Part shown: positions 6,483 through 11,195 of the stretch, piece after piece
Position numbering within the stretch: the first letter of the stretch is position 1
How the letters are laid out: each line of letters opens with the position of its first letter
Source of the DNA: Clostridia bacterium DTU065
GTDB lineage: Bacteria > Bacillota > DTU065
Length of the DNA stretch: 64,000 bases
Reading direction: 5' to 3'
NCBI GenBank assembly: GCA_001512545.1
Contig: LFSI01000083.1
Location: 6,759-70,758, forward strand
Translations under genes and position numbers: made by a program
Notes under the pieces: generated by a model
What the model was told of the DNA's origin: nothing
Databases searched by the model: none
The model's input: only the letters and a program-made list of their open reading frames with translations

Positions 6483-9400
6483 ATGTCGGAAGTTGACAAG
6501 GCTAAAGAAAAGGCTTTGCAAAGTGCCATCACAGCAATAGAGAAGGATTTCGGCAAAGGCTCGATCATGCGCCTAGGCGAAAACACCGCGATGGATGTAG
6601 AGACCATTCCTACAGGTGCGCTGTCTTTGGACCTGGCACTTGGGGTTGGCGGTCTACCTAGAGGCAGAGTAGTTGAGATCTACGGTCCCGAAAGCTCGGG
6701 AAAAACCACAGTGGCACTGCATGCCATCGCCGAGGCCCAGAAGCTAGGTGGAGTTGCAGCGTTTATTGATGCCGAACACGGTACGACTTGTTGCTAGATC
6801 AAACCCAGCGGCGCTGATCAAAGTCTAGCGGGATCTTTGGTCCTAACTGCATCTTCGAAATGGCTGGGGAAGTGCCAGCCCTGTGACAAGGTTGGGTCAC
6901 ACGCTCTAATACCCCGACGTGCGGCAGTATTTCACTGTGCTGCTGTGCGAAGTTCGGAGAGGTCGGCGAAAATCAGACCTGGAAAGCGGTTAGAGAAGTA
7001 GCCGGGAGTCCATAAAGCTCCTATGACTAAGAACATGAATCCTCGTTGTAAAAGCTCGAAAGGCATCGCAGGTGCGAACAATAAGCCCTGCTCCTTCTTG
7101 TGAGGTTCAGCCTCAGCTGCGTTAAGCGTGTTTAAAGCAGTTGAATTAAACCGTCATAGGTTTTCTGTCTTTGGGCCATCCAACCGTGGGCGCAAAGACG
7201 GCTGACGGGCTAGAGAGGAAGTCTAAGGGAGCCATGCAAGGATAGAAGATGCGGTACAAGTGAACCCCGTCAGAAACTGCTAAGGAGAGTGAACTCCGAT
7301 GGTTCTAAGCAGGAGGAAATGCCTGCTGAAGATGGGGGGCAGCAGCCTGTAGTAGCGATGAAGGGCAGCCGGATGACGGTCCCGGAAACGGGATCGGAGG
7401 GAAAAACTGCCACGAGCGAAGGGGCATAGTCGAAGTAGCTTTTGGTGCTACTTCGATGGAACGCCGCATGCGGGGAAACTCGCACGTGCGGTGTGAAGTG
7501 GGGGAAAAGCGCTTCCTGCGTCCGTAAAACGAACATAGACGCGGAGTGACGCTTACCTATCACTATCATTGAATCCATCCTACGCTAAGAATCTCGGCGT
7601 GGATATCGACAACCTGCTCGTATCTCAGCCGGACACAGGAGAACAAGGTGCGACACGTTTTCGCATAACTGCTCTGTAGCAGGAAAGCGAAGGCAAAGGA
7701 TCGGCCAACTCTTAACCAGATTTGAAAGGTGAAACTCCTTTCCTTAAACCAGGTCCGGGTTTAAGTGTCTAAACCCCTACGTGCAGCGCTTCCTATCGCC
7801 AGGGAGGTTGTGCGAAGCTAGGTAAGGTCGTAATCCGAGTAGCCTAAGGCCAAACGGCTAAGGCGAAAGTGATGCGGGACTCCTTAAAAACGAATCTATG
7901 GTGACGCAGAGGAACCCTCGCCTGAAGCTCAGACAGCTTGTCCGAAAGGCAAGCTCCAGATCAAAAGCTGCGTCTTGTTTGCGGCTTTTGCTTTAACAGA
8001 TAGCTGTTACTGCCTTTAGTGAGTGCGGACCCAATTCACATAAAGGATTTGGCTGAGTAGAGAGGGCACCTAAGGATTCGTAAAACAAGGGATATGGTTA
8101 AGGGAACGTGTGAGGCCCGATAGACGGAGAAGGCGAGGTCAATGAAGTCTATCTGGGAGTCAGCCGTCTCATAGTAGTGATGAATGCCGGGAAACCAGCA
8201 GGAGCGAAGGGGACGAGTCGAAAGGGACGGTACTTATGTCTTTAGTTTACGTCGTCTCATTTAGCCCTTTCGATGGAACGCCGCATGCGGGGAAACCTGC
8301 ACGTGCGGTGTGGAGTGGGGGAAAACGCGGAGCAGAGGCAAAGCGTTACCTATCACTATCACTTGAGATTACAGAGGCTTTGGTACGAAGCGGTGCAGTG
8401 GATATTGTGGTTATCGACTCGGTTGCAGCACTGGTTCCTAGAGCAGAGATCGAAGGCGAGATGGGCGATGCCCACGTCGGCCTGCAAGCACGATTAATGT
8501 CTCAAGCTCTGAGGAAGCTAACAGGCGTAATTGGCAAGACCAAATGCTTGGTTATTTTCATCAACCAGATTCGCGAAAAAGTTGGAGTCATGTTTGGCAA
8601 CCCGGAGGTGCGCTTTGAAGCTTCTCTTTTGTAGAGGCGCCGGGAGTTTCGGTGCCGAAGGCCATGCCCACATGCGAAGCTGCATGAAGCTGGGCGGGAA
8701 TGTGGCGAAAGCTGCTAGCCTCTGATGGACACGGCTACGCGAGGAACCGCTGTTTGAGGTCCGTTGAATGCCAAAAACTTCCCGTTTTCAAGATCTACCC
8801 TCCGGTGTGATCTTGGATGCCCCAAAAGGGCAAGGGACGGACATAGGCGGAGCCTAAATCCATCGTAGAAAGAGCAAAAGAGGGGAACAAAGGAACCTTC
8901 TGCAAGAGCAGAAGGGGCGGAGTTTCCGTAGTAGCAGATAACTGCGAAGGGAAACAGACCGGTCACTCGCAAATAGTAAGGAGGAGATTAAGTGACCTTA
9001 CGAAAGCAGGAGTGGAGGAGCCTGGCAGATGCAGGCAGACTTTACGAAACCATGGCAAGCTTTGAGTTCCTACAAAAATGTGCTAAAGCTCTCAAAATAA
9101 ACGAAAAAACTGCAGCAACTCTTTCTGAGGCGCTGCAGCAAAGGACCTACCGCCCCTTAGGCGGGAACGAAGTAGACACTCTGCTTTTGAAATGTGTCTT
9201 GGACGCGCTTTCAGCGTTGATTAAAGAGGACTCGGGACTGGATCTGTACAGAACTCTAAGGACTCTGGATTTAGCTACCGTACAGATCCAGGTGGAAAAG
9301 CTAGACTTTGCCTGCCTGAAAAAAGAGCTGTTCAAGCTCTTGAAAGAGGCAGTGCCCGACGAAGAATTTGTAGACCTGGTTTGGAAAGGAGCGAAGATCG

Positions 9401-11195
9401 CCGAGGAGGATGTCCTCGAAAAACTCGCTCCGCTTCTCAAACAGAAACATAACGGCGTCCTGATCAGAGGTTGTGAGATGCTGAGTATTTCAGGTGAGAC
9501 AGCACCGGGAAATGGCCGCGATTTTGAGTTTGGGGGATATGCCGTAAAGCTAGAGCCCGACCTCAAGATCCTCCCTGCAAAATCCAGCATTGAAGCCTTT
9601 AAGAGGGATATCAAGAACCTAACAACCAGAAGCAGAGTAGGTTACAGCGTTCGTTTTAGCGCGGTAGAGATCACAAGGAGAATCAGACAGTGGCACGAGA
9701 GCTTTGGTTTTTGCACAGATCGCAAGCTTGGCAGGTATTTGGACAGCTATGTCAGAGAGAGGGTTTACCTCTTGCTTTTGAAAAAGTTTGACAAAGCTGG
9801 CAAGAAAGAAGTCTACCAGCGCTTTATGCTGGGTTATCCAACGCTTGAAGGAGTTACCATTCCTTCAACGCGTCCGGTCGGAGAGCCGTATGCGGGGAAA
9901 CCCGCACGTACGGTTCGGGGAGCGGGAGGCTGATCCCGACTCCACACAACACCAGGCGGAAGAGCACTTAAATTCGTGCGCCCGTAAAAATAGCTGTTGC
10001 GCTATTTGCGGCGTGCTGCAGAATGCTGCAGGAGCAGTCAAGAGACGCCATCCTCTTGTGGACACCAAGCTTACCTGGAAGGGAAACCGGAAGGGGACAA
10101 CAGCATGCTTGGCAAGGCAGGTATCGAGGTTATTCTTCGAGTGCATGCCCTGTCCAGAGATGTACTTTATACGGTCAAGGCTAGACTGCCTGAAACCCAG
10201 GTCGGAGGCCTAAAGTGGGGCTCACACCTTTTGGTGTGATGGAATCACGACGATGTCTTGGAATTTGACATCGGGCTAGATGGTGGGATTCCTCTCGGCT
10301 CGAAAGAGCAAAAGACCGAACGGGTGACCTAAGTAAGGTACGAAAACGTCTGTAGTGCGCTAAACGGGGATTGCCTAAGTCCGAACGCTTAAGTCGCTGG
10401 CTCAAGCTATGGTTTTAGGACCTGAATATCGGATATGGCAACGGAGTTCCCGTAGTAGTCCGAGGCGGTAGGACGGCAAACCGTCCGAACAAGGCATCAT
10501 GCCTCTAGGGAAAGCCCGCCACATGGCGAAGGGGAACAGATTGTCGCATTTCCATAGCATCGGGGTAGGTTAAGTACCTGTCGAGCTCCGAATGATCTGG
10601 AAATGTACAGCTAAAGCGCTGTGTACATCAGCACACAAGTGCTGGACTGATACCCTTTTTACTTAGCAGCTGGACTGTGCTTTAGCCTAGGTTGGACAAT
10701 CGGAGAGCCGTATACATCGAAAGGTGTACGTACGGTTCGGGGGAGGGAAGGAGCAAACCTATTGGGGCAACTCAAAAAGGCGGCTTTTTCCTATCCTACT
10801 ACTCGTCAGTACGCTTGGATATTAGAAGAATTGACTCCATTAAGTCCGGTAATGAAATCATCGGCAACCGCACGAGAGTGAAGGTTGTAAAGAACAAGGT
10901 AGCTCCACCGTTTTTGGTGGCAGAGTTTGATATCATCTACGGAACGGGTATATCTAAGGAAGGCTGCATCTTGGATGTGGCGTCCGATCTGGGAATCGTT
11001 TCCAAGAGCGGCTCGTGGTTTTCCTACGGCGATATGAGACTCGGTCAGGGCAGGGAGAATGCCAAAGAATTTTTGCGGCAGAACCAAGAATTATGCAACG
11101 AGATCGAGAGCAAAGTAAGAGAGAAGGCTTCGCTTCCAGGATACCACGCTCCAGCAGAAGATGATGATGGGGGAAAGGATTATCTAGATGAATGA
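6483..11195 (+). CDS. recA: recombinase RecA, split gene: join(6483..6780,7567..7647,8360..8607,9946..9975,10800..11195)
   Basis: The joined exons are 1053 nt, giving 350 aa plus a stop, in frame across all junctions. Walker [10 protein letters not shown]. Junction contexts are [49 protein letters not shown]...[32 protein letters not shown], colinear with bacterial RecA. recX overlaps the stop. Confidence 0.9.
6781..7566 (+). mobile_element. group II intron 1 (ORF-less, 786 nt)
   Basis: 5' gtacg. EBS1 candidate cgtgttt (7127-7133) in a hairpin loop pairs with the exon-1 end gaacacg. gtagtag (7349-7355) and gcgaagggg (7416-7424) core motifs. D5 acgccgcatgcggggaaactcgcacgtgcggtgt (7461-7494, CGC triad, GAAA loop, 2-nt bulge). 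3' end is ttacctatcactat. Confidence 0.85.
7648..8359 (+). mobile_element. group II intron 2 (ORF-less, 712 nt), paralogue of intron 1
   Basis: 5' gtgcg. EBS1 candidate cttgttt (7974-7980) pairs with the exon-2 end gaacaag. gcgaagggg (8204-8212). D5 at 8278-8311 differs from intron 1 only by a shifted wobble pair. Identical 3' end ttacctatcactat. Confidence 0.85.
8608..9945 (+). mobile_element. group II intron 3 (1338 nt, carries degenerate IEP ORF)
   Basis: 5' gtgcg. EBS1 candidate ctccgg (8800-8805) in the loop of the agatc/gatct hairpin pairs with the exon-3 end ccggag. gtagtag (8928-8934) and gcgaaggg (8944-8951). D5 gagccgtatgcggggaaacccgcacgtacggttc (9883-9916, AGC triad). D6 ggag-cggga-loop-tcccg-A-ctcc with bulged A at 9939. 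Ends ...ac. Confidence 0.9.
8992..9933 (+). CDS. group II intron-encoded protein, degenerate RT (no YADD) with retained maturase/X domain
   Basis: GTG start with an aaggagg SD. The maturase-like block is [17 protein letters not shown]...[15 protein letters not shown]...[19 protein letters not shown] remnants are TYRPLGG and [29 protein letters not shown] sits where YADD is expected. There is no En/D domain. The C-terminus [17 protein letters not shown] is D5 read as protein. Confidence 0.75.
   Translation: MTLRKQEWRSLADAGRLYETMASFEFLQKCAKALKINEKTAATLSEALQQRTYRPLGGNEVDTLLLKCVLDALSALIKEDSGLDLYRTLRTLDLATVQIQVEKLDFACLKKELFKLLKEAVPDEEFVDLVWKGAKIAEEDVLEKLAPLLKQKHNGVLIRGCEMLSISGETAPGNGRDFEFGGYAVKLEPDLKILPAKSSIEAFKRDIKNLTTRSRVGYSVRFSAVEITRRIRQWHESFGFCTDRKLGRYLDSYVRERVYLLLLKKFDKAGKKEVYQRFMLGYPTLEGVTIPSTRPVGEPYAGKPARTVRGAGG
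9976..10799 (+). mobile_element. group II intron 4 (ORF-less, 824 nt), paralogue of intron 3
   Basis: 5' gtgcg. EBS1 candidate gaattt (10261-10266) in the loop of the cgatgtc/gacatcg hairpin pairs with the exon-4 end aaattc. gtagtag (10452-10458) and gcgaagggg (10526-10534). Short D4 remnant closed by attgtc/gacaat. D5 gagccgtatacatcgaaaggtgtacgtacggttc (10705-10738). Ends cctatcctac. Confidence 0.85.

Follow-up and report, generated by a model that had tools for sequence, protein, structure and literature searches.

A probable reverse transcriptase-inactive maturase encoded in a recA group II intron of uncultured Bacillota, with a reading frame that runs through domains V and VI

Introduction

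Degenerate intron-encoded proteins (IEPs) without reverse transcriptase (RT) activity are known from organellar group II introns, among them MatK, the nad1 intron 4 protein (MatR) and the psbC intron 4 protein of Euglena (PMC4424553). In a 2015 review of group II intron evolution, the examples of degenerate IEPs all came from chloroplasts or mitochondria, and bacterial deviants were described as occurring in 'limited numbers' (PMC4424553). Among bacteria, Trichodesmium is known for housekeeping genes that contain several group II introns (PMC4143802, PMC12584367), and a single group II intron interrupts recA of Geobacillus kaustophilus, a member of the Bacillota (Chee & Takami 2005, as cited in PMC4424553). 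Here we analyzed a 64,000-nt stretch of DNA (the window; contig LFSI01000083.1, positions 6,759 to 70,758) from Clostridia bacterium DTU065, in which recA is divided into 5 exons by 4 group II introns (window positions 6483-11195, + strand) and the third intron encodes a 313-aa protein. We conclude that this product is probably a functional, RT-inactive protein of the maturase type. As in MatK and MatR, the catalytic motifs of the RT are lost, the X (thumb) domain is kept and the open reading frame (ORF) is under selection. An earlier reading of the letters alone, made without database searches (the original prediction), had described the ORF as an RT-dead, maturase-only gene; the observation is confirmed and its interpretation is supported with three corrections, which concern RT block 5 (RT5), a role in trans and the turnover of introns.

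MatK resembles the recA-intron protein in that its host group II intron interrupts an essential gene, in that it is considered to have lost RT activity, and in that it keeps X; it is likewise vertically inherited in an immobile intron, and its motifs upstream of RT5 cannot be aligned (PMC4424553). The two differ in what remains of the RT, since MatK keeps RT5-7 and loses RT0-4 whereas the recA-intron protein keeps remnants of RT0-4 together with RT6-7 and loses RT5. They also differ in that action on several introns is documented for MatK, while the recA-intron protein belongs to a free-living bacterial host, in which multi-intron action is only hypothetical. None of the 8 members of the family described below matched the Pfam models MatK_N or Intron_maturas2 at E ≤ 10, and judged by its sequence the protein would be an independent bacterial analogue of MatK and MatR, not a member of their family. 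MatR and the Euglena psbC IEP are also presumed splicing factors that lack YADD and reside amid many ORF-less introns (PMC4424553), but these proteins are organellar and much larger, and reading through domains V and VI was not found reported for them in the literature searched. In Trichodesmium erythraeum, according to an account that itself cites earlier work, four dnaN introns are ORF-less and share the IEP of the RIR intron as their maturase (PMC12584367 citing Meng et al. 2005; PMC4143802). This IEP has been described as the RT of a full-length intron with clients closely related to its own intron, in contrast to the recA case, where the RT core has been lost, a single gene houses both the IEP and the ORF-less introns, and the introns are of two ribozyme types.

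Results

The protein encoded in intron 3

The ORF and the intron that carries it have the following layout.

8608-9945, + strand: intron 3 (site e), 1338 nt, GUGCG...AC, ORF-bearing, present in all relatives
8613-8892, + strand: domain I of intron 3 (consensus fold)
8896-8915, + strand: domain II of intron 3 (consensus fold)
8916-8964, + strand: domain III of intron 3 (consensus fold)
8963-9015, + strand: two-tier hairpin resembling domain IVa (DIVa), with the Shine-Dalgarno sequence (SD) in its 5′ strand, the GTG in its loop and codons 2-8 in its 3′ strand
8992-9933, + strand: ORF in intron 3, GTG start, 313 aa, putative RT-degenerate maturase
Residues 1-170 of the protein: RT0-RT4/RT6 remnant; 178-186: RT7; 197-280: X/thumb; 281-313: RNA-constrained tail
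9592-9822, + strand: region coding for GIIM (X/thumb, Pfam PF08388), residues 201-277
9845-9868, + strand: 8-bp hairpin UUGAAGGA/UCCUUCAA, just 5′ of domain V and inside the ORF, read from the sequence
9883-9916, + strand: domain V of intron 3, AGC triad (RF00029 alignment)
9919-9943, + strand: domain VI of intron 3, 6 bp, 10-nt loop and bulged branch A at 9939 (RF00029 alignment)

The ORF begins 28 nt past domain III, within the domain IV hairpin, and the strong SD that had been noticed is AGGAGG at 8979-8984, 8 bases 5′ of the GTG. A thumb/X maturase domain had been proposed for the C-terminal half, and Pfam GIIM indeed matched residues 201-277 at 27.7 bits against a cut-off of 23. Alignment with hhalign to four bona fide IEPs (RVT_1 scores of 109-145 bits), which served as references, gave a probability of 98.7% for the RT7 and X region. 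The sole solved sequence relative was the group II RT/maturase 7uim_D, whose match spans RT7 to the thumb; the E-value was 0.0025 with the window protein as query and 1.4e-6 with the profile of the family. The NCBIfam equivalog for group II RT/maturases, TIGR04416, reached 20 bits against a cut-off of 300, over the last 90 positions only. No RVT_1, HNH or further domain was found in the Pfam scan of the protein at E ≤ 10, and past the thumb there is just the RNA-encoded tail, with neither a DNA-binding (D) nor an endonuclease (En) domain, as the original prediction had stated. The profile search that it had proposed as a check thus returned GIIM and no RVT_1.

We next turn to the N-terminal half, in which remnants of RT blocks had been suspected. 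The default hhalign run covered positions 162-277 only; a permissive run restricted to the N-terminal 168 columns produced a single collinear alignment of RT0 through RT4 with the four IEPs (P 0.0067), and the stretches named beforehand fell on RT0, RT1 and RT2. In this alignment RT0 corresponds to LY..I...EFL, RT1 to L..TYRPLGGN, RT2 (DRvvQ...LEPi.E) to D.LLL..VLE.L.A, the RT3 strand to VEKiDl with Asp opposite Asp, and RT4 to KKELF.LL...DL.WK..K; SPLLAN of the IEPs lies opposite LAPLLK of the family. From APLLK to FEFGGY (RT7) there are 28 aa, whereas a canonical IEP has 67 aa from SPLLAN to FLGF, and about 40 residues that include RT5 and its YADD appear to have been deleted. The original prediction had placed IRGCEM at the position of YADD. 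This part of the claim did not hold, as the stretch aligns with RT6 (L.L..EKT) and RT5 is deleted rather than substituted. Scored block by block against the IEPs, the protein therefore has an RT0-RT4 remnant, RT6 and RT7, and RT5 is missing. The RT3 Asp is variable in the family (Asn in protein P0003, His in P0006), so that neither component of the catalytic pair, YADD and an RT3 Asp, is maintained throughout. Instead of a recognizable RT domain (RVT_1, RT0-7), we found a weak collinear remnant and RT-like fold matches.

The fold matches came from AlphaFold2 (AF2) models. The full-length model had a mean predicted local distance difference test score (pLDDT) of 81 and a predicted template modeling score of 0.73, and the 7 best Protein Data Bank (PDB) matches found by Foldseek were all group II intron RTs, with 8t2r_D best (E 1.5e-5). 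The other top matches included 7uim, 8t2s, 7k9y, 6ar1 and 6me0 over nearly the whole chain, followed by telomerase and retron RTs; the ribonucleoprotein (RNP) proteins 7uim, 8t2r and 6me0 are the best sequence and fold matches but are active RTs. Modeled on its own (residues 1-171, pLDDT 89.6), the N-terminal part had the G2L4 RT as its best Foldseek match (probability 0.97, E 0.025), a diversity-generating retroelement RT matched with probability 0.89 and TM-score 0.52, and a group II RNP protein ranked 10th. No relatives of the N-terminal part were found outside the family by phmmer or a profile against the PDB, nor by hmmsearch of 1.84 billion representatives, where the matches were to RT7 and X only. 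Three independent lines of evidence, each of them modest, suggest that the N-terminal ~170 residues are a shrunken RT remnant. Having lost the YADD hairpin of RT5 and lacking D and En domains, the 313-aa protein would be unable to polymerize DNA.

Conservation of the ORF

A search of 5.8 billion proteins returned just 8 clusters, with members of 304-316 aa that are 53-60% identical to the window protein; across the orthologues the range is 53-61%. Precomputed annotation assigned GIIM to 7 of the 8 clusters and an RT domain to none, and in a fresh scan of the 8 members GIIM was found in every one and RVT_1 in none, even at E ≤ 10. A profile search of 1.84 billion representatives recovered one family representative and fragments; the remaining matches (E ≥ 7e-9) covered profile positions ~145-280 only, and no close full-length relative outside the family was found in that set. 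Scans of genomes and metagenomes added 5 and 3 loci, respectively, indicating that the family is rare. The position of the gene is constant, with the same recA intron and the same neighbors in every locus. Among the orthologues the frame is intact, the start position is the same (ATG or GTG) and the SD is conserved, and no frameshift or stop was seen in the 8 proteins at ~45% amino-acid divergence.

To estimate selection we used the one unsaturated pair of loci, L002 and L010 (dS ~0.8; loci and proteins are referred to by L and P numbers where they need to be told apart). The ratio of nonsynonymous to synonymous rates (dN/dS) in this pair was 0.108 for residues 1-165 and 0.145 for residues 166-280. 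In more distant pairs the proportion of synonymous differences (pS) was 0.65-0.93, which is saturated, and that of nonsynonymous differences (pN) was 0.22-0.38. Chance is excluded, as every related locus retrieved has an unbroken ORF and the signature is one of purifying selection; by these sequence comparisons the ORF is selectively maintained and not decaying. The RT-remnant half appears to be constrained as much as the thumb, which by analogy fits a role in RNA binding. In IEPs of the LtrA type, DIVa is bound by the N-terminal RT region.

Intron 3 as a ribozyme

Introns were delimited from the sequence by their termini (5′ GUACG or GUGCG, 3′ AY) and searched with Rfam models RF00029, which represents domains V/VI and has a gathering score of 40, and RF02004, which represents D1D4-5. 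Four RF00029 matches scoring 56-70 bits and 2 D1-D4 matches were found on the + strand. The strongest belongs to intron 3 (9881-9945, 69.6 bits). RNAalifold on 6 orthologues gave a consensus of 109 pairs for domains I-III, 25 of them with compensatory changes, and between orthologues the pairs of domain V have changed in a compensatory way from A-U to G-C and from G-C to U-A. Exon-binding site (EBS) 1, CUCCGG at 8800-8805, pairs with intron-binding site (IBS) 1, CCGGAG, the final 6 bases of exon 3, and EBS2, UGCCAAA at 8769-8775, pairs with IBS2, UUUGGCA, 2 bases farther upstream. The exon of L001 carries a synonymous change from TTT to TTC, and its EBS2 has the corresponding A-to-G change. 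Domains V and VI, the 5′ and 3′ ends, the branch A, the EBS-IBS pairings and in-frame joining of the exons are thus all found in intron 3, and from its sequence the intron is compact, structurally intact and looks functional.

The DIVa-like hairpin has a consensus fold of 16 pairs. ORF codons 2-8, which form part of it, are nucleotide-identical in 5 of the 6 orthologues, the window differing at codon 2 only, while synonymous sites elsewhere are saturated. As in the DIVa of LtrA/Ll.LtrB, a domain IV hairpin encloses the SD and the start codon. Separately, we observed that the exon 3 frame enters intron 3 by just 9 codons before meeting TAG at 8632-8634, so ribosomes on unspliced recA mRNA would stop near the 5′ end of domain I.

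Overlap of the coding sequence with domains V and VI

One paper places the ORF 'invariably' in the domain IV loop (PMC2396441). In intron 3 the frame continues through domain V as codons 298-309 and ends 15 nt past it; its final 4 codons are the linker and the 5′ half of domain VI. The original prediction had read the last 17 codons as domain V. The read-through is real, but 12 codons correspond to domain V and the last 4 to the linker and domain VI. The RF00029 alignment bore out the placement of the TGA stop (9931-9933) in the 10-nt domain VI loop, 6 bases ahead of branch A9939, and with it the overlap of coding sequence and catalytic core.

All 8 proteins end in ...PVGEP(C/Y)AGK(L/P)A(C/R)TVRGA.., which is domain V read in frame, with the stop in the domain VI loop. 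In the tail (residues 281-313) pS was 0.04-0.36, compared with 0.49-0.93 in the rest of the ORF, and the changes Y/C, P/L and R/C mirror compensatory base pairs in domain V. The hairpin at 9845-9868 also varies in a compensatory manner, from GGA/UCC to GGG/CCC in L006. The AF2 model has pLDDT below 50 for residues 291-313. Because its synonymous sites are frozen, its changes track domain V pairs and it is predicted to be disordered, the tail is best read as RNA-constrained passenger sequence.

In three canonical IEPs used for comparison the ORF stops 16, 17 and 191 nt before domain V, indicating that tight packing of the ORF against domain V is normal and a conserved overlap is not. We also noted that protein P0010, a 280-aa fragment of an unrelated high-GC IEP, has VERRMRGNAHVRCGG at its C-terminus, which is domain V in another frame. 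Chance read-through of domain V can therefore occur, and it is the conservation that is special to the recA-intron ORF.

The recA gene and its ORF-less introns

In silico removal of the four introns leaves the exons as one continuous frame of 1053 nt, which codes for a complete RecA of 350 aa.

6483-6780, + strand: recA exon 1 (exon joining)
6781-7566, + strand: intron 1 (site a), ORF-less, begins GUACG, CGC-triad domain V
7567-7647, + strand: recA exon 2 (exon joining)
7648-8359, + strand: intron 2 (site b), ORF-less, CGC-triad domain V
8360-8607, + strand: recA exon 3, ends in IBS2 UUUGGCA, 2 bases and IBS1 CCGGAG
9946-9975, + strand: recA exon 4, a 30-nt micro-exon of 10 codons
9976-10799, + strand: intron 4 (site f), ORF-less, AGC-triad domain V like that of intron 3
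10800-11195, + strand: recA exon 5, contains the stop codon

Exon 4 lies between 2 group II introns and must house IBS1 and IBS2 of intron 4 along with the first exon base read by intron 3; a comparable exon of 31 nt separates introns d and e in L002 (L002 4139-4169). The mechanical ORFs 8236-8634 and 10692-11195 are translated domains V/VI of introns 2 and 4 fused to the next recA exon, and in related public contigs gene callers present recA as 2-4 separate RecA_N and RecA_C fragments. As a practical warning, an annotation artefact of this kind would conceal genes of the split-recA type.

The three other introns were matched by RF00029 at 7459-7566 (intron 1, 56.3 bits), 8276-8359 (intron 2, 57.8 bits) and 10703-10799 (intron 4, 62.2 bits), and RF02004 matched intron 1 at 6842-7016 (49.8 bits) and, weakly, intron 2 at 7704-7888 (32.3 bits). 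Intron 1 begins GUACG rather than GUGYG, as does its counterpart in L007. The statement that introns 1, 2 and 4 have no ORF was upheld, as the longest sense-strand run free of stops in each is 71-81 codons, and in a search of these introns for IEP remnants the translated domain V was the only similarity. A tblastn search with four real IEPs found no other IEP-like gene in the 64-kb window, which makes the protein the only splicing-factor candidate on that scale, as had been proposed.

Considering the relatives as well, domain V has a CGC triad in the introns at sites a-d. Rfam D1D4-5 also matches the introns of sites a-c, and for intron d there was no D1-D4 match at the gathering level. Sites a-c share the short target signature CA(N)G followed, across the insertion point, by CA. 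In introns e and f the triad of domain V is the canonical AGC, and the a-d introns constitute a second ribozyme type beside e and f. In intron d of L002 (3248-4138) a tblastn search with the maturase family detected a remnant of X, the C-terminal domain, at ~3884-4084 (30% identical, E 1.8e-4), and at least one ORF-less intron may thus descend from an ORF-bearing one.

The genes that surround recA are addB-like, SASP, LigT, recX, rny, ymdB, spoVS and spoVA, and the host is an uncultured spore-former.

Distribution and inheritance of the introns

The related loci all come from metagenome-assembled genomes labeled Bacillota or Firmicutes bacterium. Mapping RecA onto the relatives gave six insertion sites.

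Site a, between H99 and A100: window and L007
Site b, between Q126 and A127: all but L006/L008
Site c, between Q169 and A170: L001, L002, L006 and L010 groups
Site d, within E199: L002 only
Site e, between E209 and T210: all; the ORF intron
Site f, between F219 and Y220: window and L007

Each relative has 2-4 group II introns in recA, of which the ORF-bearing intron alone is universal; the 1-3 ORF-less introns per relative are spread over five other sites. Introns at the same site are 72-93% identical, with the exception of site b, where the window/L007 pair and the other relatives are 50-60% identical. The L007 orthologues of introns 1 and 4 are 79% and 72% identical to those of the window. 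Different-site introns are 40-69% identical, which rules out recent intron copying within recA. These comparisons indicate that different-site introns are old paralogues, probably inherited vertically with lineage-specific loss or ancient gain. With the ORF intron at the same codon everywhere, orthology at shared sites and old paralogues elsewhere, the pattern is one of vertical inheritance without ongoing mobility, and intron 3 is fixed in an essential gene. The immobile, MatK/MatR-like state that had been inferred from the window is therefore sustained, with the amendment that introns have been gained or lost in the history of the lineage.

Discussion

Taken together, we favor a model in which intron 3 would have passed vertically down a small lineage of uncultured Bacillota, with a domain IV ORF that would descend from a group II RT/maturase whose fingers/palm scaffold has shrunk (RT0-RT4 remnants, RT6 and RT7) and whose X/thumb was kept. 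The protein most likely persists as a maturase. It may bind the DIVa-like hairpin that carries its own SD and start codon, as LtrA and other IEPs do, and its thumb may dock on the ribozyme core and aid folding and splicing of intron 3, and hence production of RecA. In Ll.LtrB, an IEP that binds DIVa represses translation of its own ORF. At its 3′ end the recA-intron ORF would have slid into the ribozyme, taking in a small hairpin, the complete domain V and one half of domain VI. A ribosome finishing the ORF would then have to unfold the catalytic core, such that translation of the maturase and splicing would be mutually exclusive on any one RNA. A role in splicing of the host intron is suggested by purifying selection together with domain content.

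Several points weigh against this model. The RT homology of the N-terminal part is statistically weak (hhalign probability 5.7%, Foldseek E 0.025). No covariation was seen in the DIVa-like hairpin among 6 orthologues, and its proposed structure reflects invariance only. The host is known from assemblies alone, and splicing and protein activity are predictions. Furthermore, the intron might self-splice free of protein; selection could then be maintaining the ORF for a different function.

A function of the latter kind could be an exaptation other than, or reaching beyond, service to the protein's own intron, either as a general splicing factor for recA introns or as a regulator that gates RecA production. 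We consider this unlikely. The gene is the sole IEP-like gene in the 64-kb window and is present in every genome in which ORF-less recA introns were seen, and shared maturases have precedents in Trichodesmium (PMC12584367, on the authority of Meng et al. 2005) and MatK (PMC4424553). However, the introns at sites a-d are of the other ribozyme type (CGC triad, RF02004), the loci were found via the ORF, which biases the co-occurrence, and the IEP search covered the 64-kb window. The DIVa-like element of intron 3 was absent from every other intron searched and so provides no positive evidence for action in trans. By analogy with the precedents, one protein might serve all four introns; the trans role that the original prediction envisaged stays a prediction, and for introns 1 and 2 it would have to contend with the mismatch in ribozyme type. 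In its fullest form, the idea is that free-living bacteria have reached an organelle-like state of intron domestication, with an RT-less maturase, encoded within recA, that is shared by up to four vertically inherited introns of two ribozyme types and is made in a manner coupled to splicing, as its ribosomes would have to pass through domains V and VI. We put this forward as a tentative and somewhat doubtful proposal.

It is very improbable that the ORF is a decaying, functionless RT remnant whose conservation comes from overlap with RNA structure only. Such decay would account for the degenerate RT motifs and the deleted RT5, and the ORF does share both its ends with constrained RNA. Yet the middle 270 codons show pS of 0.49-0.93 against pN of 0.08-0.38 with dN/dS of 0.11-0.15, the 8 proteins are free of frameshifts and stops, and the AF2 model is confident. 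A working RT with a non-canonical active site in a still mobile intron is scarcely credible either: the overall fold is RT-like and intron presence differs among relatives, but RVT_1 is undetected in all 8 members, ~40 residues including YADD are gone, the RT3 Asp is replaced in two members, the family is confined to one recA site, and different-site introns are old paralogues (40-69%).

We return to the RT-inactive maturase as the best account of the ORF. A degenerate IEP, a housekeeping gene with multiple group II introns and a group II intron in recA each have precedents, and the locus unites them in a bacterium. Our literature search for an ORF overlapping domain V, or for an RT-less bacterial maturase, found nothing relevant; we could not find a description of an IEP with a deleted RT core under purifying selection across a bacterial lineage, or of a conserved coding overlap with domains V and VI, and both are apparently undescribed.

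RT-dead, maturase-only proteins and essential genes with multiple introns have been treated as hallmarks of organelles, and the recA locus presents the same end state in a bacterial chromosome, where the presence and absence of introns across relatives is a record of gains or losses. With recA and one 313-aa protein, the system is a tractable one in which to ask what a maturase needs once its polymerase function is gone, whether unrelated introns can be served by one maturase, and what follows when part of a coding sequence doubles as a ribozyme's catalytic core. If the shared-maturase proposal were true, these bacteria would provide a model for the passage from a selfish retroelement to host-dependent introns with a factor acting in trans, which has been invoked for the origin of the spliceosome.

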